Shown here: in pieces, positions 26,253-53,268 of the stretch
How positions within the stretch are numbered: position 1 is the first letter of the stretch
Layout of the letters: every line of letters starts with the position of its first letter
Origin: a virus
Strand: one strand, 5' to 3'
Virus record (IMG/VR): IMGVR_UViG_3300045988_164340
Coordinates: 128,001-192,000 of that record
DNA length: 64,000 nucleotides
Notes under the pieces: generated by a model
Databases searched by the model: none
Told to the model about the DNA's origin: nothing
The model's input: the letters and a program-made list of their open reading frames with translations, nothing else
Translations under genes and position numbers: made by a program

Positions 26253-26258
26253 ACACTC

Positions 26259-28246: not shown

Positions 28247-28309
28247 TTTACTTTGACTCCTTTCAAGTCTGTATTAAATTTGATTTTGAATTTGTCTTAA
28301 ACTATATGG

Positions 28310-28642: not shown

Positions 28643-28679
28643 GACTTTAATTCCTTTCTTTTGTCAAATTGATTAATAC

Positions 28680-28871
28680 TTATACTTGCTTGAGATATTT
28701 AAGGTTTAACTCTAATTTGGAATCCATGATTAAACCCTTTTCTCTTTTGATGCGACCTCTGAGATTATTCAGCGCTTGTTTCTCAGAAGAGGCCATTGTG
28801 TAACCAGAATAATGACAATAATAGTCATGCCATCTGGTTACTGGGCCCTCATAATAATATTTGAGCTTCAT
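28680..28871 (-). CDS. hypothetical protein
   Basis: 63-aa ORF with GGAGG SD. Confidence 0.6.
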   Translation of the reverse strand: MKLKYYYEGPVTRWHDYYCHYSGYTMASSEKQALNNLRGRIKREKGLIMDSKLELNLKYLKQV

Positions 28872-28888
28872 ATATACCTCCTTTCAAC

Positions 28889-29134
28889 TCAAATAAACTC
28901 TGAGACTTTACCCTCTTCATGGACATAGCCTCCAAGAACTTCAGGACATGACTGGAAATAACCAGACGCATCCTGAATGTGTACGAGAATGGTATCATCC
29001 ATATTCAATGAGCCATTTCGTACTTTCATTCTGAGAGAATTGCGAATTCGTTTCCAAATTTCGCTTCTTTCTTCGAATACATCATAGATGACTTTGCCAT
29101 CTTTTTTGATGTATCCTTTGTACCATCTTGTCAT
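28889..29134 (-). CDS. hypothetical protein
   Basis: 81-aa ORF, ATGA overlap with upstream gene. Confidence 0.6.
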   Translation of the reverse strand: MTRWYKGYIKKDGKVIYDVFEERSEIWKRIRNSLRMKVRNGSLNMDDTILVHIQDASGYFQSCPEVLGGYVHEEGKVSEFI

Positions 29135-29595
29135 TTGTTTTCACCCCCTTTCTCATGATTCAGGGCAGCTCTTCTTAATTCATCCTGAGAATTATAATAC
29201 TGCTCAAAAGCATCACAACCTTCCCAAGAAATTTTAGATTGAAGCTTTGCAAGCTTTTCAGAGACTTCTGCCAAGTTTTTTTGTGCCTCTTCAAGAGCAG
29301 ATTCCTGTAATGCAATATATGTATCCATTGCAACATTCTTTGCCATAAGAATGGCAGTGAATTCATCTTTGAAGTAACCTTCATAATGTTGAGGCATAAT
29401 ATGTGTTTTCATTTCATTAAAGGTGCTTTCGCGGATGAATTGTTCTCTCAATTCGCCTGAAGCTAGAAAATATACAGGATTTTCATTAGTATTATGAATA
29501 TTCTGAATTTTGTACACTACCATGGTGTTCATGGTAGTAGGCTGACGGTAAATCACGGTATATACATACCCATCTAACGTTGTAATCTTTTTCAT
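29131..29595 (-). CDS. hypothetical protein
   Basis: start moved to ATG 29595 (MKKITTLDGYVY) with GAAAGGAAAAAAG SD. Confidence 0.65.
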   Translation of the reverse strand: MKKITTLDGYVYTVIYRQPTTMNTMVVYKIQNIHNTNENPVYFLASGELREQFIRESTFNEMKTHIMPQHYEGYFKDEFTAILMAKNVAMDTYIALQESALEEAQKNLAEVSEKLAKLQSKISWEGCDAFEQYYNSQDELRRAALNHEKGGENK

Positions 29596-29623
29596 TTCTT
29601 TTTTCCTTTCTGCTCTTTTGAGC

Positions 29624-29652
29624 TTGACAAATCTTTGTTTGTGTGTTATACT
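29624..29652 (+). promoter_or_regulatory. antisense-oriented sigmaA-type promoter (cassette E)
   Basis: TTGACA, 17 nt, TATACT with TGt. Confidence 0.7.
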
Positions 29653-29705
29653 TGCTATTGTAATAAGAAAAGTGGTTGACCAATCCACTCTTCTTATTAA
29701 ATTGA

Positions 29706-29861
29706 TTAGTCTAAGTCTAACTTAGATATATCTATCTGGAAGAATTCAATCAGCTATTCAACACTTAGGTGTTGCATATACCAATTAAACTCAAATTCAG
29801 AAGTGATATACTACTTCAGAATAGAACCAATCTTTGCTTTATTACTAAAACTATCCTACAT
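29706..29861 (-). CDS. micro-ORF E (51 aa, three TAG codons): M(TAG)DSFSNKAKIGSILK(TAG)YITSEFEFNWYMQHLSVE(TAG)LIEFFQIDISKLDLD
   Basis: AAAGGAGG SD 5 nt upstream; GTTTTAGTAATAAAGCA shared with cassette H. Confidence 0.4.
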
Positions 29862-30003
29862 GAATTCCTCCTTTCTTTTAACTTGTTAGTGCTGGTGACT
29901 AACTTGTTATTCATTATCTTATTGGTCAGATAAGATAGAGAGCTTATTCCCATTAAGCACTCTATGAAGGGTAGGAGCATATGTTCCTGCCCTTTAACAA
30001 TGC

Positions 30004-30339
30004 TTAACCGATGTAACGTTCCTTGAGAGAACGTGCTTCCATAATGAAAGATTCAAAATCTTCGTTGGAAGTAATTTGTATTCTTTTTTCTTTGATTGGT
30101 CTAGCTATCATATTAAGTTTAGATAGTGTGTATTCACAATACAACTTTATATAATAAGTTGTGTTGTTTTCATTTAACACTCTATCAGGAGAGACATATA
30201 CGTGAAGCCAATAATCTTTCCCAAAGTGTGACTGAGCAAATGCTCCTCTATCTTCCCACTGAGCGAATACTTCAGTATCTTCCCAAGGTTTTGCAATACC
30301 AACTAACATATTGCAGATATCATGGACGGCTAATTTCAT
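30004..30339 (-). CDS. hypothetical protein
   Basis: 111-aa ORF with SD. Confidence 0.65.
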   Translation of the reverse strand: MKLAVHDICNMLVGIAKPWEDTEVFAQWEDRGAFAQSHFGKDYWLHVYVSPDRVLNENNTTYYIKLYCEYTLSKLNMIARPIKEKRIQITSNEDFESFIMEARSLKERYIG

Positions 30340-30366
30340 TTTCTTTGATTCCTTTCTATTAAACCA

Positions 30367-30395
30367 TTGACAAGTACAACTTTATATGTTATACT
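30367..30395 (+). promoter_or_regulatory. antisense-oriented sigmaA-type promoter (cassette F)
   Basis: TTGACA, 17 nt, TATACT with TGt. Confidence 0.7.
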
Positions 30396-30454
30396 TATTA
30401 TTAGAATAAGAGAAGTGCCTACACACCTCTCTTATTAATGAGCTTTTATTCTTC

Positions 30455-30529
30455 TTAGAAGTTATAGTTCTTTAGAATTACAACTACAACGACGTTTAAA
30501 GAATAATCGACTGAAATAATCTTCTTCAT
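30455..30529 (-). CDS. micro-ORF F: MKKIISVDYSLNVVVVVILKNYNF
   Basis: AAGGAGG SD 9 nt upstream; second codon AAG where G1/G2 have TAG. Confidence 0.55.
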   Translation of the reverse strand: MKKIISVDYSLNVVVVVILKNYNF

Positions 30530-30660
30530 TATTTATTACCTCCTTAAGAAGATAAAAGCAAACAAGAATGTAGGTCCTTATTTACTACAGAGGAGAGATA
30601 GGGGGATATCTCTCCTTCTGTTATGTTTGAGTAGTTTAACGACTTGCTCAGGTCGAGGAG

Positions 30661-31062
30661 TTAGTTCTGATAATCGTCACTTACCAGAACCCATTCTTCT
30701 CCATTACCATCAATGAGATGAATTGTTGTTCCATCTTCACCGATAGTAACTGACTGAAGATTACTAAACCAATTTTCAGTAGTGGTATAGGCTTCTTCAG
30801 TGCCTTTGTCGTAACCAGCGTTGTATGCGCCAGTTACGTCTTCATTAGTGCAGACCTCTGCGGGAGTGCTCTTACTGTAATCAATGTTACAGATAAGAGT
30901 AATGATGCTAATGGCAAGAATAGTCATGATAATGAACATGGCACGAGGATTCATGCTCTTCTTATGCACGATTGCTTCGATATTAATGATAACACCGTAT
31001 ACAATCATGATAATCATGATAGCCACGGCAATGATAACAATAGAATTCATGGTAATAAACAT
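30661..31062 (-). CDS. membrane protein
   Basis: 133 aa; two N-terminal TM helices. Confidence 0.65.
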   Translation of the reverse strand: MFITMNSIVIIAVAIMIIMIVYGVIINIEAIVHKKSMNPRAMFIIMTILAISIITLICNIDYSKSTPAEVCTNEDVTGAYNAGYDKGTEEAYTTTENWFSNLQSVTIGEDGTTIHLIDGNGEEWVLVSDDYQN

Positions 31063-31095
31063 CTTTATTTCCTTTCTGGTTTTAGTGTCTTTTCC

Positions 31096-31124
31096 TTGAC
31101 AATAGTTGTTTGGTGTGTTATAAT
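31096..31124 (+). promoter_or_regulatory. antisense-oriented sigmaA-type promoter (cassette G)
   Basis: TTGACA, 17 nt, TATAAT with TGt (full consensus). Confidence 0.75.
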
Positions 31125-31183
31125 GTTTTTAATAAGAGAAGCACCTATATACTTCTCTTATCTGTGTATCTTATTACACTTTA

Positions 31184-31258
31184 TTAGAAGTTGTAATTCT
31201 TAAGGATGATTACTACAACCACATTAAAAGTGTAATTGACAAATGTTATCTTCTACAT
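31184..31258 (-). CDS. micro-ORF G1: M(TAG)KITFVNYTFNVVVVIILKNYNF
   Basis: AAAGGAGG SD 8 nt upstream; codon-by-codon check done. Confidence 0.6.
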
Positions 31259-31395
31259 TTATTTACCTCCTTTAGAAGATAGAAGTATTTAATTGTATAG
31301 GCAACTAAATACTGAGAGCTTATTGCGACTAAGCACTCTATAAGATAGAGGAAGATATTTCTACCTTCCTCTATCCTAACAATGCTCAGTTATGC

Positions 31396-31470
31396 TCAGA
31401 AGTTATAATTCTTCAGTATCGCAACTGTTACAACATTAAGAGCATAATTTACGGAAATTATTTTCTACAT
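31396..31470 (-). CDS. micro-ORF G2: M(TAG)KIISVNYALNVVTVAILKNYNF
   Basis: AAAGGAGG SD 9 nt upstream; TGA stop. Confidence 0.6.
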
Positions 31471-31614
31471 GGTAATTTCCTCCTTTCCGAGTGCGATTTG
31501 GATTACTAAGCACTCTATTAAGCCCAGTATCAACTCCTTTTGGGGCGGATATTGGGCTTTAACAATGCTTAGGTATTGAGCAGTTTATTGTCATACTCAG
31601 GACAAAAGAGTGGA

Positions 31615-31956
31615 TTAGTTCTTAATCATCCACCCTTCACAACCGTATTTCTCATGGACAATCTTTCTGTTCCAGCAGTAATTTGTGCTGCCACCATCAG
31701 ACTGAGGAAAAGTGATACAAGTTTTCTGCATTAAAGTAAGAATGCCCTTCCATGCATCTTCGGTTTCTTCATTGAAAATCTCATTGAAAACGGTTTCCAG
31801 TGCTCTCCACTGGAGGAAAATTGCTCCCTGATAGCGGAAACGGTCGTAGACCTTTACAAAGGTCTCCGTGAAGGACGGGGTATTGAAGCTGTCTACTAAC
31901 TTGTCCAACCATTTATTGTTGTTGCTGATAGTAATGTTGATGTTGTTGATATACAT
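31615..31956 (-). CDS. hypothetical protein
   Basis: start moved to ATG 31956 (MYINNINITIS) with AAAGGAG SD. Confidence 0.65.
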   Translation of the reverse strand: MYINNINITISNNNKWLDKLVDSFNTPSFTETFVKVYDRFRYQGAIFLQWRALETVFNEIFNEETEDAWKGILTLMQKTCITFPQSDGGSTNYCWNRKIVHEKYGCEGWMIKN

Positions 31957-31996
31957 AGCTTTGACTCCTTTTTGTTCCTTTCTTTTAGAAAATCTG

Positions 31997-32025
31997 TTGA
32001 CAAATATAACTTTATATGTTATACT
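31997..32025 (+). promoter_or_regulatory. antisense-oriented sigmaA-type promoter (cassette H)
   Basis: TTGACA, 17 nt, TATACT with TGt. Confidence 0.7.
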
Positions 32026-32083
32026 GTCATTGTAGTAAGAAAGATGCCTATACATCTTTCTTACTGGTGATGTGTATAAATTA

Positions 32084-32161
32084 TTAACTTATACGTTGTG
32101 ATGCTTTATTACTAAAACAACAATCACGCAAAGAAAATAATTTACTTCTATCAATCTTCAT
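32084..32161 (-). CDS. micro-ORF H: MKIDRSKLFSLRDCCFSNKASQRIS
   Basis: AGGAGG SD 7 nt upstream; no TAG; divergent peptide. Confidence 0.4.
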   Translation of the reverse strand: MKIDRSKLFSLRDCCFSNKASQRIS

Positions 32162-32224
32162 TATTTTACCTCCTGAAGATTGATAGAAGTACTTATCAAT
32201 ATAGGTTAATAAGTACTACAAAAT

Positions 32225-32254
32225 AAAGAGACACTTGTTCGGAAGTGTCTCTTT
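32225..32254. terminator. bidirectional intrinsic terminator
   Basis: 11-bp stem; ATTTTGT follows in - sense, ACTTTTGTTT in + sense. Confidence 0.6.
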
Positions 32255-32325
32255 ACTTTTGTTTGGAGAAAGGCTATTTGTTTATACTCGTTAACCTTCC
32301 AGAACGAGTTGGATTGGAGAGTTTT

Positions 32326-32529
32326 TTAATCAAAGGAATAATTATATTCTTGACCATAGAAATTAAGGATATAGCCATTTTCGTTTGATTCAACAAGAAC
32401 GGCATTCTTGATTGTTTGGTCGATTGTTTTCTCAACCAAATGGTTGCAAAATCTTACGCAACCAAGACCGATGATGACGATGATGATGAGAGAGATGATG
32501 AATTTTTCTTCCTTGTTAATGTGTTTCAT
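32326..32529 (-). CDS. small membrane protein
   Basis: 67 aa; TM FIISLIIIVIIGLGCV. Confidence 0.6.
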   Translation of the reverse strand: MKHINKEEKFIISLIIIVIIGLGCVRFCNHLVEKTIDQTIKNAVLVESNENGYILNFYGQEYNYSFD

Positions 32530-32679: not shown

Positions 32680-32716
32680 AAAAAATAAAAAAGTCAGAAA
32701 GCATTTACTTTCTGAC
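32680..32716 (-). terminator. intrinsic terminator of the HNH gene
   Basis: GTCAGAAAG/CTTTCTGAC stem around the stop codon, long T-run in - sense. Confidence 0.65.
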
Positions 32717-34087
32717 TTTATCTATAGCTTTTTCTAAAGCTTGTTTTCGTAATTTTTCTGCTCGTTTAGCTCTTGTTTCTTTTAACTTTTCAATTTTCTT
32801 TTTTGCTTTTTCTGCTTGCTTTTCTTCTAAACGAATATTTTCCTATTCTTCTGTTAAATTAAAATTGTTATTTAATTCATTCGTAATTTGTTCTATTTTC
32901 TATGCAATATTAGTAGTTTTTCTCAAGAACTCAAATGGTTCTAAATCCATTTTCATTACATTACAAGCACTGCAACATGGTACACAATTATTTTTTGTAT
33001 ATCCTCTGTCTGATAATATTCGGTCTATTCCACAATAATTAAGGTCTTTATATTTATAATTGGGAATAGAATACTCTCCACAATAAAAACAAGGTTGAGA
33101 AGTTAACTAATTAAATTCTTCAATAGTAAATTCGAAATTAAAATTTTTATCTTCTGCTCTTTTTTGGTAATAATTATATCTATATTCTAAACATTCTTGT
33201 TCAATTGATTTTTCTTGCTTTGGCTTATAGGGGTCACATTCTAAACAACACCATAAATGAGTAGAAACAACATTTTTTCTAAAACATTCAATCGGCAACA
33301 TTTGGCCGCATATTTTACAAATATGTTTAATTACTTGTCTATTATTATCTACAATACATAGTTCTTCATTACAACCCATACTTCCACATCTTCGTGGAGC
33401 ATTAACATTTAATAAATTATTCCCTTTTACTACTCTTTTACTTTTTAATTTACATTGACATTCACAAAGATAATCACAATCTCTAGCAAGAACTTCAGGG
33501 TCTAAAGTTAATTTTTCTAAAACTTTGTATTTCCGATATATAGAACCAATATTAATAGTATTAGATTTACTAGAGCATTTTATGCAGCAAGAACTTTTAC
33601 CTCTTACAAGATTAGCCTCAATAACATCTTCAATATTACCACATTCAGTTCCATCATTTAAAATATGATGACAAACACATCTCCAAGTACGTCTTGTATA
33701 TTTATTACATTTATTTTGATATGGTTCTCCCTCTTCAAGAACTTCCCAATCTCCAAAGACTTGTCCAATTAAATCATATTTTTTCCTTTGATGATTAATT
33801 CCATCATTATTATTTTCTTTCCAAGAATTAACTTTTTGTTGTACCCAAGTATTTTTGTTATTTTGATATTTAGATTCAGTATGACCTTTTTTATTATATG
33901 GATTGTATTCGGTAGGACAAGTTTTTAAATATTGAGCTAATAATTTATATTCATTCCCATCTTTATCAACACAATCCCACTAAACTAATGAATGTCCACT
34001 TTCTGTAATATATTTTTCATCACTCTATTTTACTACATGAAACATTCCAAAATCTTTACCTGTTAAATCAATTATTTTTCTACCCAT
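32705..34087 (-). CDS. HNH homing endonuclease, five in-frame TAG codons
   Basis: 1383 nt, in frame throughout by eye; ...FTIEEFN(TAG)LTSQPCFYCGEYS...GIDRILSDRGYTKNNCVPCCSACNVMK is the HNH_3-type core; the ORF track shows only a 90-aa fragment. Confidence 0.75.
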
Positions 34088-34156
34088 AAAAACACTTCCT
34101 TTCAAATTAATAATAAAGATACATTGATATCATCATTATATCTTTTCTCAATTTAC

Positions 34157-38729: not shown

Positions 38730-38758
38730 TTGACAGAAATAGAAACATGTGTTACAAT
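38730..38758 (+). promoter_or_regulatory. sigmaA-type promoter opening the right + strand block
   Basis: TTGACA, 17 nt, TACAAT with TGt. Confidence 0.7.
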
Positions 38759-38901
38759 TCAGACATGAAAGAAAAGCGGATGAATACCAATGAGAATTGT
38801 GAATTCGTCCAATAAAAAATATAGAAAGAGAGGTACAACAATGTATAATTCTTAAGCAAAAAAGCAATGCAAAAGCATAGATGAATACATTAAAGCAACC
38901 G

Positions 38902-39618
38902 ATGGAGATTGTAAAAAATATAGATATAGACCTTAATAAGAGGACAATTTTTTTAGATGTAGATGATGTTTTGTTAGATAGTTCAGTGGCAGTGGTAAAT
39001 ATCTTAAATTAGCGTTATGGTTTAAATAAGACTTTAGATGATTTGGTTGACTGGGGATACAAAAGTATTTATAGAAATTTAACTAAAGAACAAGTTAGTG
39101 AAATTTACGAATCAGAAGAATTTTGGTCATCAGTAAAGCCTAATGAAATATTAATGAAAGCTTTAGAAGATTCCGAAGAAGATGAACAAGGAATTTGGCA
39201 ACAATATAATTGGATATTACTTACCAAAGGCTCAAAAGAATCACTACAGAAGAAACTTGATTATTTAAATAAGATTCCGTTTTTTAAACGTAATGAATCG
39301 AAATGGCGGTATTTTGGATTAGGTCATGGAGAGAAGAAAGAAGATGTTCATATGTTAGGACGGATTCAAATTGATGATAATTATAATTTTCTTAATAGAA
39401 CTGATGCAGATTTAAAGATTCTTGTAAGGAATGGTAAAGAGACAAGATTTAATCGACCTAAAGTTGAGACAGAAAATCTTGAAAATTTATATATTGTAGA
39501 TAATATTTCACAAGTTTTTGAAATTTTAGAATTTATAACAAAATTGGATACTGAAGATATTGACCTTGATGGTTTTGATATTATGGATATGATTACCGAG
39601 GTTAGTCAAATTATTTAA
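38902..39618 (+). CDS. HAD-family 5'(3')-deoxyribonucleotidase-like protein, one in-frame TAG (39010)
   Basis: IFLDVDDVLLDS HAD motif I lies upstream of the TAG and is fused in frame to ORF 39043..39618; start 38902 or 38881. Confidence 0.6.
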
Positions 39619-39643
39619 AATTCCAGCGAAGGAAGGTAACTAA

Positions 39644-42559
39644 GTGCGTTTATTTTACACCGTTAAGCTTAATAGTGCATTAATCAAAGAAAACGGCTAT
39701 AATTTAGACATTAGTTTTCAAGATTGTTTAAAGAGCAATCTAATTGTTTCTTTAGCAGATAGTCAAATGCTAAAGAGTATTCGTGATATAACTGGTTAGA
39801 AGATTGATAGAGTCCAGCTTGAAGAATGGTACTCTGAAAGAGATAAATTAAAAAAAGGAAAAAACAGCAAGAATAATAGGGATAGAATTAAAGAGTTACA
39901 AAGAAAAATCTATAACATGATGTTTATACCACAGTATATTACTGTAAGCATGGAAAATGTCAAATCTTATCGAGACATCTATGAAAATGGTTTTTCTTTT
40001 ACTATTGATTGTGGAGAGCCTATTATTAAAACTGTTAAAAATAAAGATGGTTTAAATGAAGATATAGTTGTTGGTTACGAGAAAGTAACGTATCATTACA
40101 AACGTTTATCTTGTTCAGCATCTCAAGCACGAGTAAGTACAGTAGTTTTTTGTGAAGAAACTATTTTGCCAGAATTAAAGAGAAGGCTTGATAATGGACG
40201 TAATATGGATGATTACAAAATCGCTCCTAGTAAGTATAATGCATATTTTGGTTTATATTCGAGTGCAACAAAAGAAGTTACCAAGCCAAGATTTTGTATA
40301 ATTCCAGATTATTCAGAAGTAAGACCTGTTGATGTTGATTTTGTGATTGAACAACCAGAAGACCAAGATGATATTATCGAAGAAAGAACAGTAGACGTTG
40401 AATTTAATATGGTCGATGGTTCTGGTTTAATTAGTCCTCAAATGGCTGAACAATGGGGAAAAGACCTTGGAGAAGAGTATACTCCTTGTCAATTTTGTAT
40501 TCGCTGTGCTTTCACAAAAGGGGCTGTAAACGAATTTGATTTTGTTGACTGGTGTAAAGAACTCAACAACGAGAATTATTTAATTAAAGATGTTTACGGC
40601 AACTACGTAGATGTAAGAAATATTGATGTTATTCTTACAGAAGGTATGGCAAAACTTTGGAGTGCTTGGGATTCTCAAGAAAGTTTTGAAGAAAATTGTC
40701 AAAAGAATGGTATTATTTGGGGAGTAACCAAATATGCTCCTAAACAAGACAAAGAAGTAAATACAGCAAACTATCAATTTTTGCAAACTTTAAATCTTAC
40801 GCCAGAAATGGTAAAAGATGTTTGTAAACCAACAGTTGATTATATTCAAGGTGTAAGTTACGATAATATTTATTACACTTTATTATTTCTTCTCGGCGAA
40901 AATTTGACTCAAGATAATATTGAAAATTATATGAAATCAAGTGACAATTATTGGTTAAAGTCTCTTGTTTTAAATAATTCTTTGTTATATGATAAATATT
41001 CTAAAGAAAAAGTAAGAGATTTTATTATTAGAAAAATTGAACTTGCTTGTCTTGGAAAAATTATGGTTCATGGTAATTTTCAATGTATTGTAGTTGATGG
41101 GTATGCTTTTATGCAAGCCGCTACAGGTCAAAAAGTAACTGGCTTGTTAAATGCAGGAGAAATGTATTCGCAATTTTGGAATGAGAGAAACGTTACAAAA
41201 GTGGATACTATGCGTAGTCCTCTTACTCATTTTAGCGAGCATTACCCTGTTGAGTTAAAGAATACAGAAGAAATGAAAAAGTGGTACAAGTACAGTTATA
41301 GTGGAGTAATTGTTAATTGTCACGATGCACATACAATGCATTGGGCAGGAAGTGACTATGACTATGACATTATATTTACCTGTGATAATCCAAATTTTAT
41401 TAATGGCGTTTATCCTGACCAAAGAGTAGTAACTTACAACGCTAAAAAGCCTCATAAAAAGCCAGCGAGAGAAATGACTGATTTGGATTTGTATAATACT
41501 GATACATTTAGTTTTGGTACAAGAATTGGTCAAATTACTAATATTTGTTCTACATTTGTTGGTATGTTACCTTTGTTTGAAAAAGGTAGTAAAGAAGAAA
41601 AATTGTTGCAAGACAGAGTTAGGTCATGCTGTGCGGCTCAGTCGAGACAGATAGATAAAACTAAGATTGGTGAAAATGTTAAAGCAGAAGCAACAATTTG
41701 GAAACAATATCAACATATAAATCCAGAAGATTCTCCAGAAGAAATTAAAAGAAAAGAATTTCTTAATTCTCTCTTAGCTGATAAAAAGCCTTATTTTTTC
41801 AGATACAAATATAATACTTTAAGTAAAGAATACAACGAATTTGTTAAGAAAAACGAACAAGATTGTCAGCTTAGATTTGCTTGTTCTTTAAAAGAGTTGT
41901 TGGCTAAAGATGAGAATTTATTAAATGAAAGTCAAAAAGAATTTATTAGATGTTATAAACATTTTCTTCCTGTGGTTGATTCTGATTGTGTGATGAATCA
42001 AATTTGTAAATATATTGAAAATGTTGATTTTCATATTAGAGAAAAAGTCCGCTCTTCTCAAAACTTTGATTATCATACCTTAATGTCTGATGGTTTTGTA
42101 ATTAACAAAAAGATATATGAACAAATTAACGATTTAGTATCAAGTAGAATTAAGGAATGGGCAGCTAAAAGAACAGAAAAAGCTCTTGACGGAGCGTTTA
42201 CAAGCAAAACAGTAAACCCAAGCAAAGTTCTTGACAGAGATTTAGAATATAATATTTTAAGACAAGATTTATTAACTAATATTTGTTCTAATGAAGAACA
42301 ATTAGCAAACCATTTAATATATTTATTTTACGTTGATAAACAGTCTTATAACAAGAACATTCTTTGGGCTTTAGTTGGAAGACAAATATATGAGAATATA
42401 AGAAAAAAGACCTCTGTTTATTATTTTCCTCAAAAGAATCCTAATGGTTCTTTAGAGTTTTTATATGAGAAGTATTCTATTGAGAGAGTACTTGTAAGTC
42501 ACAAAGAGGAAATTGAAGAAGAGGAAAAAGGTATAAAGGAGGAATCTTTTTATGATTGA
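39644..42559 (+). CDS. single-subunit RdRP/YonO-like (two-barrel) RNA polymerase, one in-frame TAG (39797)
   Basis: GTG 39644 after GGAAGG; motifs IRCAFTKGAV, MRSPLTHFSEHYPV and GSDYDYD (41354-41368) parallel the IRxxxxKGxV / NPxxHPGD / DxDGD motifs of cellular RdRPs and YonO. Confidence 0.6.
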
Positions 42560-43616
42560 CATTTATGATGAAGAGGGTTATATTCAAGAAGTTCTTTAGA
42601 ATGGTTTTTCTCAAAAGTGGTAGAGAGATGCTGCTTTACTGGTAAAATATTTTAAGACAGAATATGCACTTGGAAATTAGCCCTCTTGGAATAAAGCATG
42701 GGTTAAAGAAACGATTAAAGAAAAGTGTAAGAAGTATGTACCAACTTATGACCCCAATGTAACCTTTAATAGAGTTAATAAGTTGGTAGATACAACTTGG
42801 AAGAATTGGAAGGTTGACCCTGATAATCCAAAAGAATCATCTTAGCTTAGGAAAATAAAAGAAATAAAAATTCCCGAAGCGGTGCTAAACTGGTTTTTAA
42901 ATCTTGATACATATTATATAACAGACGAAGAAGTAAAAGATATTAAATCAAGGCGTAAGAATGTTAGTGTAAAGAATCATCCAATTACAATGGCACGAGC
43001 TAAATATTTATTTACTTTATATGTATGGACAAAAATTTAGGAAAACTATTTAAGTAGACCTAATATACATTATCTTGAGAAATATAATAAGAAGTTAAGA
43101 AATGATGCTGATTTAAAGCCAAGTTTTTCTCTCACGAAAGAAAGAAACGTATTATTTGATTTAGGATTCATAGATATAAATCATGGACTTGGAGTGACTC
43201 CTATATTTATGGACAAAGAAGATTTCAAAGAAGCGGAGAAAGATGAAAAGGTAATTTTATTGGGTCGGAATGACCTCTATTTGTGCGGAAAATGGCTCGA
43301 AATGAGGAAATTCGGAACTTTTAGATGCCAAAAATGTCGGAAATTATTGCCGCTTCCTGAGAAAAACAAAAAAGGTGGAACACCTAAAAAATATTGTGAC
43401 GAATGTGCAAAACTGGTAAGGAATTGCATAAGTAGTCATTATTTTTGCGAAGTTTGTGGAAAAGAAATAGAACATAATAGTGTAACACAGAGAATCCGCA
43501 AGCGTTGTGCCACTTGTTAGGACCTCTATCGTAAGATGAAAGATAGAGAAAGAAAACAAAATTTGAAAAATTCCGCAAATAAGCCGAAAAACCTCGATGC
43601 TGATTTTGATATATAA
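42552..43616 (+). CDS. hypothetical protein with C-terminal zinc ribbons, six in-frame TAG
   Basis: 1065 nt in frame; ATG overlaps the RNAP stop; CQKC...CDEC...CEVC...CATC. Confidence 0.6.
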
Positions 43617-43722: not shown

Positions 43723-44157
43723 ATGATTAAGGTTTCTAAATACGAGCGTAAGGAATTAGAGAGAGTTGGTCTTCTTAAGAATAGACAAGTTGGTTTGAAT
43801 CCACAAGACGCAAATTATACTGTTACTAATAGAGAACATGTAGGTCGTGATAAGACAATTTATGTTGCTGAAGAACCTGAAATTATGCTGTTCTTAGGTA
43901 AGTATGATGATTTGAATCTTCAGAGAATTAGCGTTAATCAGTATAACAAGCTTGTTGAAAAGAAGATTTTGAATGATGCAAATATTCAGCGTTGGGGCGA
44001 ATATAAAGTCAACGCTATTTGCTTCCAAGATTCATACGGCGTTTATCGTTGCAAAAAGATTTCTAAGATTATGCTTGAACTCGGTATTTGGAGCAATAAC
44101 AAATCTAAGGGTGGGTATAAGCCCCATAAGGTTGTTGAATCTCATACTGAAGATTGA
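43723..44157 (+). CDS. hypothetical protein
   Basis: 144-aa ORF, no TAG. Confidence 0.65.
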   Translation: MIKVSKYERKELERVGLLKNRQVGLNPQDANYTVTNREHVGRDKTIYVAEEPEIMLFLGKYDDLNLQRISVNQYNKLVEKKILNDANIQRWGEYKVNAICFQDSYGVYRCKKISKIMLELGIWSNNKSKGGYKPHKVVESHTED

Positions 44158-44606: not shown

Positions 44607-44708
44607 TATAATACAAGATTGGTTTCTTTCGAATAAAGAAATCTTTACAATTAAAAATAGCTCCAAGTCATCTTATGGTGGCTTGGGGCTTTTTATATAG
44701 GTGATACA

Positions 44709-45554
44709 ATGACAAGATTTAGATTGATTAAAGCAATTATGGAGGAAACAGGGTATGATAAAGAAACTGTTTCTAATGTAATTGAATCTTTAGAATATAA
44801 AATTCTTGATACTATTGCAATGGAAGATTAGCTTGATTTTGTGTTTGGTTCTATTTATGGGACTACTAAACCATCTCATAAAATTACAGGATATGTTTCA
44901 ATGCTTCCTGAAATTAGAAAACAAAAAGCTTGGTCTTCTGCATTTTTAGGATATCCAATGATTAAGTTTAGTAGAGAGGCTAAAAACTGTGATAGAGTTT
45001 ATGCAAACGAATTCTTTGCTTGGCCTGAAAATAGATATACTTCGTTAGCTAGGAAGTATAGACAAGATGTTGGAGACCCTGAAATTCCAGAATACGAAGG
45101 TTTATCTGAAGAAAAAATTCAAGAGTTGTGTCAAAAAGCGGATGAAGAGAAAAAAGGTCCTCAATCTCCCCATCAAAAAGCAAGAGAGGCGAGTAACGAA
45201 AGAAAAAGGATTAAACATCAAGAAGCTCGTCATGCTTTAATGAGGCAAATGGACTTAGAAAAACAAAGAGAGAATGGAGTTCCCGAGGAAGATTTGATTG
45301 AGCGACCATTTGAAGATATTTTAGAAGACATGAAAGCTGAATGGTGGCAAACTCACGAAGATTTTCAAAAAAACTGGAAACCATATTTAGCCGACCCTGA
45401 AAAAGTCAAGGAAAGACAGGCTGCTCGTTTGCAACATGCAAAAGAGCACAAAGAATGGATGAAACGACAAGCTGAACTCAAAAATAAAAGAAATGAAGTT
45501 TGGCAAGGAGAAATTAACGATGACGGAATAGCAGTTGAGAAAAACGACGGTTGA
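44709..45554 (+). CDS. HU-like N-terminal domain fused to a charged helical extension, one TAG (44829)
   Basis: MTRFRLIKAIMEETGYDKETVSNVIESLEYKILDTIAMED(TAG)LDFVFGSIYG... continues in frame into ORF 44841..45554. Confidence 0.6.
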
Positions 45555-46293
45555 ATGGTTTTATCGTTGGGTTGGTTTTAGCGTGGCCAATGGTAAACAT
45601 AAATGGATTATTGATATTTATAATAGGATAACTCCCTTACCAGCAAACCATATGATGCTGTATACAGAACCTTGGTGTGCAGCTACCGTTTCTGCTCTTG
45701 GAGAGAGATTAAATTTGACAGAATATATTTATCCTGAATGTAGTTGTAATAGAATGATAGCTCTCTATCAAAAGAATGGAAGATGGGAAGAAAGAGATGG
45801 TTATAAACCTCAAATTGGAGATTTGTGTTTTTACGATTGGCAAGATAACGGAGTTGGAGAATGTACTGGAGAAGCTGACCATGTTGGCATGGTTTGTGAC
45901 GTAAGTGGAAACACCTTTAAAGTTTTAGAAGGAAATTATTCCAATGAAGTTAAGAGTCGCACAATGCAAATTGATGGTAAATATATTAGAGGTTTTGGTT
46001 TACCAAATTATGCTAAAGCTGCAATCGGTTATAAAGCTCCAGTCGATAAAACCAATATTAGAACTATGGCTGGTCAAGTACCCTATTTAAACATAGACAA
46101 TAATAACGAAGCTGTTAAAATGGCTAAGATTCTTTTTAATAGTTTAGGGTTTAATGCTGGGACAGACACAATTTTCGATGAATAGCTGGAAAATGTAGTA
46201 AAACAATACCAAAAGATGTATGGTTTGAGATAGAACGGTGTAATTAACAGAGATGTTTGGTTGTTATTGCTTTAGGGAAAACCTAAGAAATAA
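45520..46293 (+). CDS. endolysin: CHAP amidase/peptidase + PG_binding_1 domain, four in-frame TAG
   Basis: EPWCAATVS, ADHVGMVCD, VLEGNYSNE (CHAP); C-terminal ...VVKQYQKMYGLR(TAG)NGVINRDVW; AAGGAG SD before ATG 45520; TAG at 45529, 46183, 46231, 46273. Confidence 0.75.
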
Positions 46294-46323
46294 TTAATTA
46301 TTAAGAGAAGGATGGTGAATTTT

Positions 46324-46527
46324 ATGGCTGGACCTGCTCGCAGAAAGTCTCTTAAAACTCTAATCAAGGAAGTGACAGTTGGATTAGCCAACACTTTCCG
46401 TAATAATATTAATGAAAATAATAAGAATATTGCGGAAACAGTGGATAATTTGCCTGATATCGCTATCAGTAAAGAACAACCAGTTGATTAGAAAGCAGGA
46501 GACTTCTGGTTTCAAATTGTAGATTAA
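46324..46527 (+). CDS. small structural-type protein, one TAG (46489)
   Basis: ends QPVD(TAG)KAGDFWFQIVD, same module as the C-terminus of 60085..60492. Confidence 0.55.
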
Positions 46528-46566
46528 TTAAATTTTTGGAATTAAAAGGTTTAGAAGGTGTGTTAA

Positions 46567-48210
46567 ATGGCTAAATTAACAAACAATAGGGCCAAAGCTG
46601 CCATTGCTAAAGAATAGAAAAGATTAGATGCCATTCAAAAGAAAATGGAGACACAAAGGAAAAAAGAGGAATTTGGAGAATCTTGGAAATATTTTTTAAA
46701 AGATGAGCATAAACAGGCTCTAAAAGAAATTGTTGGGGACTTTGGTACACCAAATCTTGTAGATTCTGTTGATTATAATAGTTTTTTTGACCCTATTAAT
46801 TTTTATAAAGAAGAAGATGGAAGTGTAAGATAGCTTGATTACAAGAAATACTTAGAATACGAAGAAGCTTATCAAGAAGTTATTGATGATTGTGATAAAA
46901 TTATAAATGATGAAATAGATACTTCTAACGATTCAGCTAAAGAGCAATTAAGCACCCATCTTACTAAAAAAACAGAAAAGAAAAAGAGTAAGCCTAAAAT
47001 ACCCGAATACTTACAAAAGCTTTATTAGAATTGGACAAAATATTTTAATAGGTTTGTTCCATTGTATGATAAATATGTATGTTCATGTTGTGGAAAAGCA
47101 TTGCCACAAGATAAATATTTCCTTGCATACAACGAAGGGAATTTGGGTAGAATAGAAGCTAATGGAAAAATGCACACACATATTTGTATGGATTGTTGTA
47201 AAAATTTATATGAATATTTGTTTTATGAAAAAGCAGACAAAGATGGCGAAAAAGCAATGAAATGGCTTTGTAGTTATCTTAATATATATTATGACGATGT
47301 TAGTTATTTTAAAGCTAAAAAAACGATGGAGGAGAAAGATAGAAAAACTCATATAGTTGAAGAATATATGAGTGTTATTTCTCGTAGTGCTACTTTAAAA
47401 GGAAAAGTTTTTTTGGAATCGCCCGATGTTGATGTGAATCAAAACAAAGGAGATTCAAAGGCTGATAAAATAATTAACAGCAATACAGGCAATGTGCCTG
47501 AAGATTTAGAAGAAGAATGGAGTAAAGCTGACCTCGAAGCAAAAAGACAAGTTATCAAGATGGTTGGTTACGACCCGTTTTATTTTGAAATTGAAAAAGA
47601 TAGAAAAATTCTTTATAAAGATTTACTTGGTATGATGGAACAGGGTATGGAGCTTGATGGACTTAAAGTCCAAGCTGCTATTTAGATTGTTCTTTCTTTT
47701 AAAAATATTCGTGAATTAAATGAAAAATATAGAAAGAAAAGTGACGAAGATGCTCCTGTTTCAGAATTAAAAGCGTTATCCGAATTAAAGAAAAAAGAAC
47801 TCGAAACAATTACAAGCTTTAGTAGAGATAATGGCTTTGGCGAGCGTTACGCTATCAGTAAAGCCAAAGGTGAAAACACATTTTCTGGTATTATGGCTAA
47901 GATGAATGAGATGAAGTATGAAAATGCTATTCTTAATATGTATGATGTTGAGACTAGCAAGAGTATTAATCAAGCTGCTGATGCAAGTTTTGCAGCTATT
48001 TTCAATCAACTTAGTATGAGTGAAGCGGAAGTGTACAAAACTTGTCAAGATTAGCTTAAAAAATTGCTTTCGTTGCAGAGAGAAAACGCCACCATTACTG
48101 AAAATTTAAGATTGGCTAAACGTGAATTAGCTGAGAAAAAATTGGAAGAAGAAAAACGTCAGTACGACAAAGAAAATGGTGATGATGGCGATAGTTGGGG
48201 TGGTTATTAA
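46567..48210 (+). CDS. 547-aa protein upstream of TerL (possible small-terminase role), five in-frame TAG
   Basis: 1644 nt in frame joining ORFs 46645.. and 47062..; TAG at 46615, 46831, 47026, 47683, 48052; Cys cluster; function assigned by position only. Confidence 0.5.
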
Positions 48211-50261
48211 TGATTAATGTTATTTTTAATGACTTTAGTTACGAACTGCTTCCAAAGAGAAAAGAAATTTTTGAAAAATATACCAAGATAATTTAGTGGG
48301 GAAGAGCAAACCCGACAAGATTTATTGAAGATTTTTTTAAAATATAGCTAACTGATATGCAAAAGTATGTTTTGCTGAGTAGTTGGTGCCCTGCAAACTG
48401 TGTGTGGCTTATGGGAAGAAACTCACGGAAAGCTACCAGTTTAAGCACCAAAACTTATGGTAAAATTAGCGACCGTGGAGTGGCTATTGAGGAGAAAAGT
48501 GTTGGCGAATTAAGAATTGGAGATAAAATTTATGATAATACTGGTAAACTAACAGAGGTTATTCATTTAAATCCAATTATTTTCGAAGAAGTCTATGAAG
48601 TTGAATTTGAAGATGGAGATATAATTGAATGTAATGCTGACCATCTTTGGTATGTAAAAGATTCAGGGTTTGATAAGCGTAATAAATATGATACGAAATG
48701 GGTAACTCGCTCTACTGATTTTATTTATAATAATTTTAATAAGGTAAAACGGGGGAGAAAAGCAGAAAAAGGATGGAATGATTATCGCTTCTTTGTGCCA
48801 ATGAACAAACCAATTGAATATCCGAAGATGCTGCGACTGCCTGTTGCCCCATATATTTTAGGTTTATGGCTCGGAGATGGTTATAGTGCTTCTCCTGCTA
48901 TTTGCGGTGCAAGAAAAGATTTAAAAGAAATAGAATCATATGTTAAAAAATTATGCCGTACAACTTATTACGAAGAAAAAAATGAAAAAAAAGATTGTGA
49001 TATTCTTTACATAGACCGAGAAAAAGAATTAAGATTGTAGGACAATATTCTTCCAACTAATGTGAAAAAAATGTCGTTGTTGCAAAAATTGCGCAACATG
49101 GATTTATATGATAATAAACATATTCCAGAAGAATATTTACATGCTTCCATAAATGATAGAGTGGAACTATTGCAAGGCTTAATGGACACAGACGGTCACT
49201 GTGAAAAAAATACAGGCTATTGTAGTTTTACTCAAGCAAATTATGATTTTTGTTTGCAATTTCAGAAACTTTTATCTTCGCTGGGAATAAAATCTACATT
49301 GACAGAGAAGAAGATGAAATATATTAAAAAGGACGGAAATCTTTCTCGCTCTTGGACGGTATATTTTATGGCATCTAAAGAAATGCCTTGCTTCAAATTA
49401 AAAAGAAAGTATAATCTTTTGAAAGATACTTTATCAGACAGATAGAAGCAAAAAGCGATTGTAGATGTTCGCAAGACTGGTCGAAAAGCGCCTATGCGCT
49501 GTATAACAGTGTCAAATGAGTCAGGTCTTTTTCTTTGTGGGAACAAATATACAGTAACGCATAATTCATTCCTTGCTGCACCTTTTATGATGGCAAGAGC
49601 ACTTTTGTTACCAAATACTAATACATATATTATGGCTCCAAGTGGAGGTCAGTCTCAAGAAACCTTTTAGAAGATGGAAGATATGGCAAAAGGTAATATC
49701 GCTTCTTTGCTGGGAACATCTTCTGTGTTCTTAGATGAATGTGTTAGAGCAAATACTTAGGCTGACCCCTTTGTTCATCCTAAGAGTGGATATACAGTTA
49801 GCTTATATAATGGTAGTACAATTAATACGTTAAATAGTGTAATAAAGAATATCGTTGGTATAAGAAGCTCGTTTAGTGTATATGACGAGGCTGGAAAAAT
49901 AGACAGGACATTCTTTGCCTTGTCTCGTCCTTTTACTGCACAGGATACAAACTTTATTACTGGTGATGGTATTAATACGGATATATATCCAAGACAGCTA
50001 CCGAACAAAAAGTTATTATTAAGTTCTGCTGAAGGTATTGATAGCGAACTTTTTGACCAATATAAAATGGCATTTGAAAAAATGTTGTTAGGAGACCCTA
50101 ATTATTTTGTGTGTGATATTAGTTGTGAGTTTTCATTACATCCTTTTATGAATGGTAAGCCTATGAAACCACTGATTACTTAGGATGAAGTTGATAACGC
50201 ATTTGCTACTAATCCATACAAAGCAGAACGTGAGCAAATCGAAAAGAAATACTCCGCACAT
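48210..50261 (+). CDS. terL: terminase large subunit, exon 1 (includes intein)
   Basis: ATG overlaps the upstream TAA; KII(TAG)WGRANPTRFIEDFF, Walker A GRNSRKAT, after the intein SFLAAPF..., Walker B VYDEAG, SSAEG; 3' boundary uncertain. Confidence 0.75.
48438..49565 (+). mobile_element. intein with LAGLIDADG homing-endonuclease domain in the TerL P-loop
   Basis: 376 codons; starts SLSTKT, LGLWLGDGYS and LLQGLMDTDGHC motifs, ends YTVTHN followed by Ser; two in-frame TAG. Confidence 0.75.
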
Positions 50262-51395
50262 TTAGTGATAAGTGTGTGCATCCCATTGAACTGCTGGGAG
50301 TTCTTAAAGGTTTTTGTACTACAGCATAATTATGAAATAAGAATAAGTGCGAATGTTACGAAAGTAAAAAGAAACAAAAACATGGTGCATGGTTAAATCC
50401 TAAACACTATATAATAGATAATCAGCAGCCAAGTCTTTAACAGAGAAAGGTTCAACGACTATCCCGTGACTGGGAGTAGAGGTTGTTAAAGAATAATAAC
50501 TTCGAAGTGGTGGGACATCTTAATGAGATGATGATATAGTCTAAGCTTATATGAAAATATAAGAAGTAGGTTGTTTTTAAGGGCGACAAGGGAAGGCCAT
50601 CCTTTATACATATCCGCAAAATATGTATATAGCCCTTTATATATTAAAAATACTTTTTGCGGGAGGTTTTTAATGGAAGATGATAGAAAATGGACAGTAT
50701 ATATTCATACTAATAAAGTAAATCAAAAGAAATACGTTGGAATAACTAGTACTTCTGTGATAGAAAGATGGCATCATGGACATGGCTATTTAACCAAAAA
50801 GAAAGATGGAAGTTTTTGTTAGCCAGCTATGGCTTATGCAGTATTAAAATATGGATGGGAATGTTTTTCTCATGAAGTAATAGCTGAAAATTTGACTATG
50901 GAAGAGGCTTCTTAGATGGAAAAAGAATTGATAGAAAAATATTAGTCTAATAACAAACATTTTGGATATAATATTAAAGAGGGTGGAATAGATGGATTGC
51001 CTTCTGAAGAATCAATTCAAAAAGCTTTATAGACAAGACTTAAGAATGGATATCATCATAGTGAAGAAACTAAAAAGAAGATATCTGAAAGTAATATGGG
51101 TAAAACTCATACTGATTCATCTAAAGAATTGTTAAGTAAAAGCCATAGTAAAACAAAACAAAGACCGAAGGAAGTAATTCCACGGAATGATACATATAAT
51201 TAGGTTTATTGCCAATGTGTAGAAACAGGAGAGTGTTTTCCCTCAATTTCTAACGCCGCTGTTAATACTGGCTCTTACAATCCAAATATAGTTAAATGTT
51301 TAAAAGGAACAAGAAAAAGAGCAGGCGGATATCATTGGAAAGAAATAACAAAAGAAGAATATGAAGAATACTGTGCCAACAACTGAAAATACTTG
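50262..51395 (+). mobile_element. group I intron in terL (boundaries approximate)
   Basis: GGTTCAACGACTATCC (about 50449-50464) and ATATAGTCTAAGC (50535-50547) resemble the P7/P7' core; candidate P1 GCACAT(50256-50261)/GTGTGC(50274-50279) with U-G at the splice site; exon frame resumes near 51396. Confidence 0.6.
50673..51386 (+). CDS. intron-encoded GIY-YIG homing endonuclease, five in-frame TAG
   Basis: WTVYIHTNKVNQKKYVGIT...RWHHGH...KYGWECFSHEV...GYNIKEGG; GGGAGG SD. Confidence 0.75.
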
Positions 51396-52430
51396 TACAA
51401 GAATCGTTTTGATAGAGACGGTGGTGAAGATGTTTTTGTAAAACGCTCAACGATTTTACGAAACAGCTTTGCATACTATCCAGTATATGAAAATGACGGT
51501 GAAAAGAAATATCTCGTCTGTTACGACCCTGCATCAAAATTAGATAATTCTATTGTTTTAATAGGAGAATTGTTCAGAGATAAAGAAAAGGGTTTAATGT
51601 TAAAAATAGTCAACTGTGAGAACTTGATTGAGCTTTTGCCTAATGGTGATAAGGCAATAATTCAAAAGCCTCAGCAAATTGAAATGATAAAAGACCTTAT
51701 TATAAATTATAATAGAGGTGCTTTAGATTATGATAATATTGAGCTTGTCTGTATTGATGCTGGTGCAGGCGGTGGAGGATTTGATATTTCTCAGTTCCTT
51801 TTAAATGATTGGGTAGGTTCTGATGGTAAACGTCATTTAGGTCTTATAGACGAAGAAGACCCGTACATGAAATTACGCGCAGATGATTATCCTGCAAATA
51901 TAAGAAAATTGCAGTTATTTAATTTTAAACGTGATAAAGTTCAAGCTTATGAAAGAACTCAAGCTGCAATTAACCAAGGATTAGTAATGTTTCCAAAGAG
52001 TTTAAATGCTCGTAACGAGATGGAAATTGAAGAGGTTGCTTCCGATGGAACAACTTCAATAAGATATGAAAAGGTTTCGTTTGATGAAATGAACTCTTTG
52101 ATATAGATTGATTTAACTAAAGAAGAGTTAGTTGGTATGCAAAAGCAAAAAAGACCAAATGGTACGATTGTTTTTGAACTTTCTCCTGATGCCAAGCAAA
52201 AAAATATGCATGATGACCGAGTTGACTGTGTAGCAATGATGTGTAATCATTTGATGGAGTTGCGTGCCAAAGAAGTGTTGGCGTTGGAAGAAAAACCTAA
52301 GACAGAATTTAAAGAAATGTTTGCAAAACAAAAGAGTGCGAACAAGAGTAATAGTTCTAATCCTTTTAATGGATTAGGACAGGTAAATCCACTTTCTACT
52401 AAATATAGAAGAGGTGGAAGGTTTGGATGA
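51396..52430 (+). CDS. terL: terminase large subunit, exon 2 (nuclease domain)
   Basis: KYLVCYDPASKLDNS, CIDAGAGGGGFDI, NMHDDRVD; one TAG at 52104. Confidence 0.7.
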
Positions 52431-52469
52431 TATTAACGATTAATATAACAAGAAAGGAGGAGTAGGATT

Positions 52470-52853
52470 TTGTTAAAAATAAATAATGGGGTAATTTCAT
52501 TAACTCGTGGCGATGACTGCGTAATAGATTTACAGATTTATACTCCTGATAATTAGGAATACAGTCCAAGAGAAGGAGAAAAAGCAAGGTTTACAGTTAG
52601 AAAGCATCCTTTGTATAATAACGCTACTCCTCCTTTAATCGAAAAAGATTTTGAATTTGTTGAGCTTGAAAGCACTTCTAAGAATGAAAAAGATGAAGAA
52701 AAGACGAAAGTTTGGCGAATTAAAATTAAAGGAACTGATACGAAATTTCTAACATACGGAGGCTATTTGTACGACGTATAGTTTTGTGATATAAAAGGGA
52801 ATATAACCACTGTTTGCAAAGGCAAATTTATATTGACATATGAAATTGGGTAA
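52470..52853 (+). CDS. small beta-rich structural-type protein, two TAG
   Basis: TTG start after AAAGGAGG; ISLTRGDDCVIDLQIY...GGYLYDV(TAG)FCD. Confidence 0.5.
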
Positions 52854-52894
52854 TACTCCTTATTAAAAGAAATGAAAGGAGAGTTTTATTTACG

Positions 52895-53173
52895 ATGGTA
52901 AGAAGAGATTATAGTGGAATGACACTGATAACGCCTGATTCTCCTAATTATAATAGAGGAGTATTATATGGTGTATTAAATGCTGGAATTGAAGAAATTC
53001 CCGCAAAAGATATGAAGCTTGAAGATTTAAAAGATGTAAAGATATCTGAAAGTGGAGTAGAAAACAAAGACATCCTCATGTATAATAAAGAGAATGAAGC
53101 ATGGGAAAATAAGAATATGGATAAGTATTTGGAAGATAACTTGGTAGATGGTGGTGGAGTCCCACGGTTCTAA
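52895..53173 (+). CDS. hypothetical protein ending DGGGVPRF
   Basis: 92-aa ORF; C-terminal motif shared with 54662..55030. Confidence 0.55.
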   Translation: MVRRDYSGMTLITPDSPNYNRGVLYGVLNAGIEEIPAKDMKLEDLKDVKISESGVENKDILMYNKENEAWENKNMDKYLEDNLVDGGGVPRF

Positions 53174-53268
53174 GGAGTCTTTTTCAAATAAATAGCTATT
53201 TAATTATAGCGAATTAAAATATTTTGCAAAACATTTTAATTAGGTAAATAGGAGGTGTAAAGACAAGA

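Follow-up and report, generated by a model that had tools for sequence, protein, structure and literature searches.

A YonO-type single-subunit RNA polymerase gene with one in-frame TAG codon, located ahead of the TAG-rich late genes of a phage

What kind of protein is encoded by a 971-codon reading frame that is interrupted by one TAG codon, and which genes of the phage would such a protein serve? The question is raised by a locus at 39644-42559 in a window (the whole stretch of DNA analysed) of 64,000 nucleotides (nt), which corresponds to positions 128,001-192,000 of the virus record IMGVR_UViG_3300045988_164340; all coordinates below are window positions unless another locus is named. A preliminary description, made from the sequence alone, had assigned the frame to a non-canonical RNA polymerase (RNAP). 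We consider it likely that the gene encodes the YonO-type RNAP of an SPbeta-related phage in whose late genes TAG stands for glutamine (Gln), and that the enzyme serves the late block. The locus was compared with those of two related contigs (L002 and L003, 99% identical to the window gene), two diverged, recoded contigs (L006 and L007), a standard-code relative (L004, 64% identity), a lightly recoded 216-kb relative with an intron-bearing polymerase gene (L011), Bacillus phage BUCT082 (L001, homologue gene at 3260-6031) and the SPbeta-type phage Goe12 (L005, YonO gene at 5623-8139). The YonO protein used for comparison was that of Goe12 (QMV48984.1, 839 amino acids). The polymerase gene and its elements are as follows.

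39644-42559, + strand: polymerase gene, 971 amino acids, GTG start, TGA stop; single-subunit, two-barrel type of YonO and the RNA-dependent RNA polymerases (RdRP)
39628-39636, + strand: Shine-Dalgarno sequence GAAGGAAGG, 7 nt 5' of GTG 39644
39797-39799, + strand: in-frame TAG, codon 52, read as Gln; CAA in L004, TAG in L002, L003, L006 and L007
40490-40528, + strand: beta-like barrel motif QFCIRCAFTKGAV, residues 283-295; R287, K292 and G293 invariant in 35 full-length homologues
41201-41257, + strand: beta'-like motif VDTMRSPLTHFSEHYPVEL, residues 520-538; R524, S525, P526, T528 and E532 invariant in the same 35 homologues
41339-41377, + strand: catalytic loop HWAGSDYDYDIIF, residues 566-578; D571, D573 and D575, the predicted metal-binding triad, invariant in the same 35 homologues

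Translation of 39644-42559 gave 971 sense positions and a single internal stop, the TAG at codon 52, which confirmed the frame from GTG 39644 to TGA given in the preliminary description. The standard-code open reading frame (ORF) is 39917-42559 (880 amino acids). At the local base composition, 919 codons free of stops would arise by chance with a probability of ~3e-32, and an in-frame TAA precedes GTG 39644. The Shine-Dalgarno sequence is kept in L002, L003 and L007, and is represented in L006 by GGGTGA at equal spacing; no ribosome-binding site was found at ATG 39917. With the 91 upstream residues included, the match to phrog_25339 gained 29 bits (272 to 301) and began at residue 7, and the N-terminus LFYTVKL...SLADSQMLKSIRDITGQ is common to metagenomic homologues at 58-73% identity. 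The true start is GTG 39644, as shown by these observations, and the proposed upstream extension of the ORF through the TAG was borne out by its conservation in homologues and by the gain in PHROG score.

The three motifs of the preliminary description were found where it had placed them, and their order (RxxxxKG, NPxxHPGD-like, DxDxD) was the same in the alignment with YonO. BLASTP aligned the protein with YonO at E 2e-21 (23% identity over 514 amino acids), pairing FCIRCAFTKGAV with FMVRLPWVKGLL, MRSPLTHFSEH with LRSPHLFREH, and SDYDYD with FDNDGD. Motif QFCIRCAFTKGAV is aligned with FMVRLPWVKGLL of YonO and motif VDTMRSPLTHFSEHYPVEL with IDILRSPHLFREH, so that R287, K292 and G293 fall on the RxxxxKG of YonO (VRLPWVKG), R524, P526 and H529 on RSPH, and D571, D573 and D575 (codons 41354-6, 41360-2 and 41366-8) on DNDGD. 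The loop is DYDYD, in which Tyr takes the place of the usual Gly of the DxDGD that is canonical for Pfam RdRP, and variants in the clade are DYDFD, DYDYD, DFDMD, DFDYD and DFDFD. In profile searches the protein scored 52.2 bits against Pfam RdRP PF05183 (gathering cut-off 23.8, E 5.7e-14, profile positions 69-539 of 582) and matched phrog_8308 at E 5e-128. The YonO and BUCT082 proteins gave no Pfam RdRP match at E <= 0.1, in contrast to the window protein and its homologue P0003 (~50 bits); judged by score, the window clade resembles the eukaryotic RdRP profile more closely than does YonO, the type member of the family. Homologues were detected by tblastn in 39 phage records, including SPbeta-type YonO, c-st, and Enterocloster and Thomasclavelia phages, with YonO matched in 24 Bacillus phage records (E 7e-14 to 2e-16). 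A search of the PDB sequences, with either the single protein or a clade profile, gave nothing relevant, and NCBIfam contained no model for the window polymerase, YonO or the BUCT082 homologue.

An AlphaFold2 model of residues 53-971 (predicted local distance difference test (pLDDT) 85, predicted template modelling score (pTM) 0.80) covered both barrels in one polypeptide. Foldseek against the PDB gave 21 significant matches, all of them to QDE-1 or plant RDR2 (E 2.6e-17 to 8e-12, prob 1.0), with template modelling (TM) scores of 0.38-0.48 over ~900 columns; beta' subunits of multisubunit RNAP came next at E > 0.02, and no alternative fold was found. Among the viral models of BFVD the top matches were phage 'RdRP' proteins, and segments of giant crAss-like proteins were remotely similar (E ~1e-5, best 6e-6). 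The assignment to the two-barrel RdRP/YonO type made beforehand has therefore stood up to both the profile search, where PF05183 was passed, and the structure search. In the model, the active site would lie between two double-psi beta-barrels, with R287 and K292 on the beta-like side and D571, D573 and D575 on the beta'-like side. Family, modelled fold and predicted catalytic residues together show the protein as a YonO-type single-subunit RNAP.

How the TAG is read was assessed from homologues and from the surrounding genes. Among the 110 homologues with a locatable motif, the residue at the TAG position is Q in 91 and K in 16, and the BLASTP alignment with BUCT082 crosses the position without a gap. 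Four contigs, down to ~60% identity, retain the TAG at codon 52 in a frame that is otherwise open, apart from further in-frame TAGs in the polymerase genes of L006 (codons 41, 208, 212 and 624) and L007 (codon 316). Decoding TAG as an amino acid turns the + strand between 38.9 and 63.5 kb into a closely packed array of genes. Same-frame ORF junctions on the + strand beyond 39.6 kb comprise 18 joined by TAG versus 1 by TGA and 1 by TAA, and the late codons, counted from 42552, include 50 TAG in 6264. The minus-strand block at 6.4-38.3 kb has 1 TAG in 6710 codons. The polymerase gene itself has 1 TAG in 971 codons, a density 8-fold under that of the late genes (P(<=1) = 0.004 at the late-gene rate). 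TAG sites that could be aligned to L004 proteins fell on Gln in 4 of 11 cases, including the nearly invariant Q163 of a zinc-ribbon protein encoded directly 3' of the polymerase. By these comparisons, TAG is read as Gln in the phage late genes, codon 52 is shown to be a Gln codon, and TAG use is confined to this + strand block.

Several other features of codon use were recorded. Recoding is graded among the relatives, from L004, in which it is absent, through L011, where each late gene contains 0-2 TAGs and the first exon of the polymerase gene is TAG-free, to the heavily recoded L006, L007 and window. An HNH/endonuclease VII-like gene at 32705-34105 on the minus strand carries five in-frame TAGs and is the sole recoding-dependent minus-strand gene in the TAG-free block. 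The minus-strand block at ~6-32 kb has a GC content of 33-39% mostly, versus 27-35% in most other 2-kb windows, and Gln codon preference is for CAG in the TAG-free block and for CAA in the late block.

The surroundings of the polymerase gene bear on its function, and the relevant features are listed here.

38730-38758, + strand: near-consensus sigmaA-type promoter TTGACA-17-TGtTACAAT, 11/12 with extended -10, in a divergent intergenic region
38881-39618, + strand: NT5C-like deoxynucleotidase gene, first in the operon, 245 amino acids, one TAG; PF06941 E 4e-5, just under the cut-off
42552-43616, + strand: 354-amino-acid protein with a helical N-terminal part and a C-terminal double zinc ribbon; six TAGs; 8-nt overlap of its start with the RNAP stop
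43723-44157, + strand: 144-amino-acid gene of the same operon, no TAG; conserved in L002, L003 and L007
44325-44606, + strand: HU-type DNA-binding protein (YonN equivalent), PF00216, E 4.9e-18; own promoter-like site near 44202
44659-44690, + strand: intrinsic-terminator-like hairpin, 14-bp stem and T run, which ends the polymerase/HU operon
44709-63531, + strand: TAG-rich late block, first gene 18 nt past the terminator
45493-46293, + strand: endolysin, late block
46567-48210, + strand: YonG-like gene, late block
48195-52430, + strand: large terminase, late block, apparently interrupted by LAGLIDADG and GIY-YIG/NUMOD3 endonuclease sequences

The promoter at 38730-38758 is a candidate for transcription of the polymerase operon by host RNAP, and the NT5C-like gene is also found 5' of the RNAP gene in L002, L003, L006 and L007. 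The order in the window is thus polymerase, zinc-ribbon protein, 144-amino-acid gene, HU, terminator and late genes, the last including tail-like genes as well. It matches the SPbeta order of yonO, yonN (HU) and late genes when compared with Goe12 and BUCT082, the HU gene being at the position of yonN after yonO in Goe12 and of HU in BUCT082. The gene directly after HU (44709-45554, 281 amino acids, one TAG) encodes a second HU-related protein, whose N-terminal half-domain resembles HU (PF00216 E 6e-4, below the cut-off) and whose tail is long and charged. In the terminase region, the first part contains a LAGLIDADG/Hom_end-type insert, the GIY-YIG/NUMOD3 gene lies at 50571-51386 (five TAGs), and the C-terminal part lies at 51393-52430.

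SigmaA promoters with at least 11/12 matches were found in the TAG-free block at a frequency of seven in 10 kb, perfect or near-perfect and on both strands, and near-consensus sites also lie 5' of the operon and of the HU gene. The late block (44.7-64 kb) contained one 11/12 sigmaA-like site (52590, no TG), no 12/12 site and no such site with an extended -10. This distribution gives indirect support to late transcription by the phage polymerase. The regions 3' of HU in seven loci were compared and contained hairpins, with no shared motif.

In the proposed course of events, the sigmaA RNAP of the host would transcribe the operon from 38730-38758, and ribosomes would halt at codon 52 until an amber-suppressing activity, which is not encoded in the window, is present. 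The full-length enzyme would then transcribe the TAG-rich late block from ~44.7 kb on, as YonO does in SPbeta, presumably on a DNA template, as YonO does (PMC5467207). Since the full-length enzyme needs suppression, late transcription could not precede the code switch. The preliminary description had called the enzyme 'gated by one TAG', which holds in that full-length translation requires suppression, while an adaptive switch is a matter of interpretation. Several points weigh against the proposal as a whole. The near-universal Gly of the catalytic loop is replaced (DYDYD instead of DxDGD), and the window protein matches the eukaryotic RdRP profile, which YonO does not, so that RNA-templated activity is conceivable from the sequence. 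The terminator is only 18 nt from the first late gene, and a k-mer search of 19 late-block gaps detected nothing of at least 10 nt common to at least 3 gaps. No suppressor transfer RNA (tRNA) was found by ARAGORN in the window, L002-L004, L006, L007 and L011-L015 or by Rfam in the window, where no other RNA family was detected either; the window is less than one third of the likely 211-239 kb genome. Finally, the TAG at codon 52, absent from the standard-code and lightly recoded relatives, may be a selected lock, or it may have drifted neutrally into a gene whose translation in any case follows the code switch.

The preliminary description had further suggested that the enzyme might read hairpin or ATAGAGTG-type signals. 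ATAGAGTG is enriched (10 copies versus 2.0 expected), 7 of the 10 being on the minus strand at 25.2-34.0 kb, and four of the minus-strand copies belong to the hairpin elements listed below together with the associated peptide genes.

27699-27745, 29958-30004, 31334-31386 and 31511-31569, - strand: AAGCATTGTTA, variable perfect hairpin, ATAGAGTGCTTA; the outer TAAGCA/TGCTTA can also pair
30455-30529, 31184-31258 and 31396-31470, - strand: genes for 24-amino-acid hydrophobic peptides, M[K/Q]KIISVNYxLNVVVVxILKNYNF, with strong ribosome-binding sites

Three of the four hairpin elements lie ~70-110 nt 5' of the ribosome-binding sites of small peptides. As promoters of the polymerase, ATAGAGTG and the hairpins were rejected: the four copies within hairpin elements are small-peptide leaders in the TAG-free block, and no copy heads a late gene. 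The peptide modules (window 26000-32400, intergenic gaps) face near-consensus sigmaA promoters on the + strand at 26224, 27466, 29624, 30367, 31096 and 31997, and in their arrangement they look like type I toxin/antisense-RNA loci. Two of the 24-amino-acid peptide genes and two diverged copies begin with ATG-TAG, and translation of the putative toxin would possibly be held back until TAG is decoded. A separate palindrome made of ATAGAGTG lies at 57202-57232, after the gene at 55593-57041.

Three other explanations of the polymerase gene were weighed. That the protein is an RNA-dependent enzyme which makes antisense or double-stranded RNA, and does not transcribe phage DNA, is suggested by its passing of PF05183, which neither YonO nor the BUCT082 homologue does, by the significant PDB matches, which are all cellular RdRPs, and by the GenBank phage homologues annotated 'RNA-dependent RNA polymerase'. 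These names derive from the Pfam label, however, and not from experiment; the gene is at the yonO place, ahead of HU and the late genes, and the late block, being almost devoid of strong sigmaA promoters, needs some polymerase, whereas double-stranded RNA synthesis has no evident role in a DNA phage. YonO, aligned at the E value given above, is the sole characterised prokaryotic/phage member and is DNA-dependent (PMC5467207). We regard an RNA-templated role as improbable on balance. Much the same low probability is given to a virion-packaged polymerase of the N4 or crAss-like kind, which would be made late, injected, and used to transcribe early genes, perhaps from the hairpins or ATAGAGTG. 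The gene does depend on the late, recoded state of translation, it is on the same strand as the structural/lysis block and adjoins it, the crAss-like giant protein segment is remotely similar (E 6e-6), and the early block is enriched in hairpin elements (ATAGAGTG 10 versus 2.0 expected). Yet the host polymerase suffices for the early block, given its several sigmaA promoters of perfect or near-perfect sequence on the two strands, and the hairpin elements lead small-peptide genes and are not general gene-start signals. The polymerase is located in its own operon, with a sigmaA-type promoter ahead and a terminator behind, and not in the placement expected of a virion RNAP, and its TAG density is far under that of the late genes. 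N4 and crAss-like virion polymerases are also much larger than 971 amino acids. Furthermore, no injection is involved when YonO acts upon prophage induction (PMC5467207).

The remaining explanation, that the standard code applies and that the gene gives an 880-amino-acid protein from ATG 39917 or is a pseudogene with a nonsense mutation, appears very improbable to us. A standard ORF caller does give 39917-42559, and the failure of ARAGORN and Rfam to find a suppressor tRNA in the window and related loci would fit. Against this, the ribosome-binding site is strong at 39644 and missing at 39917, residues 4-91 align with BUCT082 and all close homologues, four independent contigs, down to ~60% identity, have the TAG in an otherwise open frame, and 50 more in-frame TAGs occur in intact late genes versus the single TGA and single TAA junctions. 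The YonO-type enzyme translated through a TAG and serving the late block is the explanation retained below.

The zinc-ribbon gene lies directly 3' of the RNAP gene also in L002, L003, L006, L007 and L011, whereas five small ORFs separate the two in L004. Identities are 38-90%, the protein has 105 homologues, and its similarity to the BUCT082 neighbour is weak (E 1e-5). Its Pfam matches are generic zinc ribbons, with a TFIIB ribbon in 13 of 44 members, and its AlphaFold2 model (pLDDT 88) had no match in the PDB (best E 0.89). Because its position is conserved and it is translationally coupled, the protein may speculatively be considered a candidate accessory factor of the polymerase. A more far-reaching combination was also considered, in which the RNAP and the coupled zinc-ribbon protein would form a minimal two-protein transcription machine, the latter giving promoter recognition in the manner of TFIIB or sigma, the amber codon would be a selected feed-forward lock joining the late-transcription and code switches, and no other phage proteins would be as closely related to the ancestor of the eukaryotic RdRPs as this clade. 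Taken jointly, these claims seem unlikely.

No smaller relatives of cellular RNAPs are known than the YonO-type enzymes. To these the present gene adds a well-defined and abundant gut-phage member with a Gly-less catalytic loop, a conserved candidate partner at its 3' side and a dependence on stop-codon recoding, and it offers a concrete and testable case of a phage code switch upstream of a transcription switch. For annotation, the standard code truncates the polymerase gene and fragments the whole late region, and table 15 is needed for such phages.

The related contigs cluster at 211-239 kb, and the phage is therefore probably a jumbo relative of the c-st-type Firmicutes phage group. A scan of GTDB genomes detected three loci only, one in a Lachnospiraceae metagenome-assembled genome (MAG) and two in Clostridium MAGs, from which host assignment is weak, and a DNA search of the polymerase gene against 50,697 phage records gave no match. 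Jumbo phages of Firmicutes, c-st among them, were already described as having YonO-like enzymes (PMC7824862). The proteins of c-st, Enterocloster phage PMBT24 and Thomasclavelia phages TR-TP1/2 are 24-32% identical over 84-90% of the window protein. In c-st and the Enterocloster phages CB457P1/2 and CB473P1-3 the match is in two pieces, whereas the window gene is uninterrupted. The polymerase gene of L011 is split by three group I introns at 2980-3228, 3394-3612 and 3736-3991 (RF00028; 50.7, 27.4 and 24.9 bits, respectively), the first after the first catalytic Asp (GSD/YDYD) and the others after FGTRIG and QSRQI, and dozens of database homologues end exactly at these three intron points.

Cellular RdRPs, represented by QDE-1 (2j7n, 5fsw) and RDR2 (7w82, 7rqs), have the overall fold and the Pfam family in common with the window protein, but differ in that identity is 11-15%, that the Gly of their DxDGD is replaced in the window protein, and that the latter stands in a phage context. 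With respect to recoding, the window resembles the gut phages of Firmicutes and Bacteroidetes hosts that use code 15, with TAG reassigned to Gln (10.1101/2021.08.26.457843; phAss-1, PMC10607447): in-frame TAG is found in the late, lysis and structural genes, and the early genes are code-neutral. No suppressor tRNA was seen within the 64-kb piece of the present phage. Text searches found no mention of phage RNAP in either 10.1101/2021.08.26.457843 or PMC10607447, and the amber codon in the polymerase gene accordingly adds a minor novelty to a model that is already known.

The homologue of the Spbetavirus BUCT082 (UAW07825.1, 924 amino acids) is 40% identical over window residues 4-951, including the N-terminal extension, and has a DFDYD loop; as in the window, a gene for a distantly similar zinc-finger protein overlaps the polymerase stop, and HU follows. 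It differs in that no stop codon interrupts the gene, that the host is Bacillus, and that the homologue is annotated as hypothetical.

YonO is a DNA-dependent RNAP required for 37 late genes of SPbeta, and its promoter, any cofactor and the way in which it finds promoters are still an open question (PMC5467207). In the Bacillus SPbeta-type phages a conserved non-coding region of ~1.7 kb separates HU from yonK (L001 7244-8961, L005 8665-10354), and the YonO start site has been mapped there, whereas in the window and its close relatives the gap between HU and the late genes is only ~100 nt (window 44607-44708) and contains two hairpins. Compared with YonO of SPbeta and Goe12, the window protein is longer (971 versus 839 amino acids), is 23% identical over 514 amino acids, has DYDYD in place of DNDGD, is followed by a coupled zinc-ribbon gene, contains a recoded TAG and, unlike YonO, passes the Pfam RdRP profile. 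The two have in common a single chain with both barrels, the motifs RxxxxKG, RSPxxH and DxDxD in the same order, and an HU gene followed by late genes. Apart from the TAG requirement, the polymerase is an ordinary member of the known YonO family.

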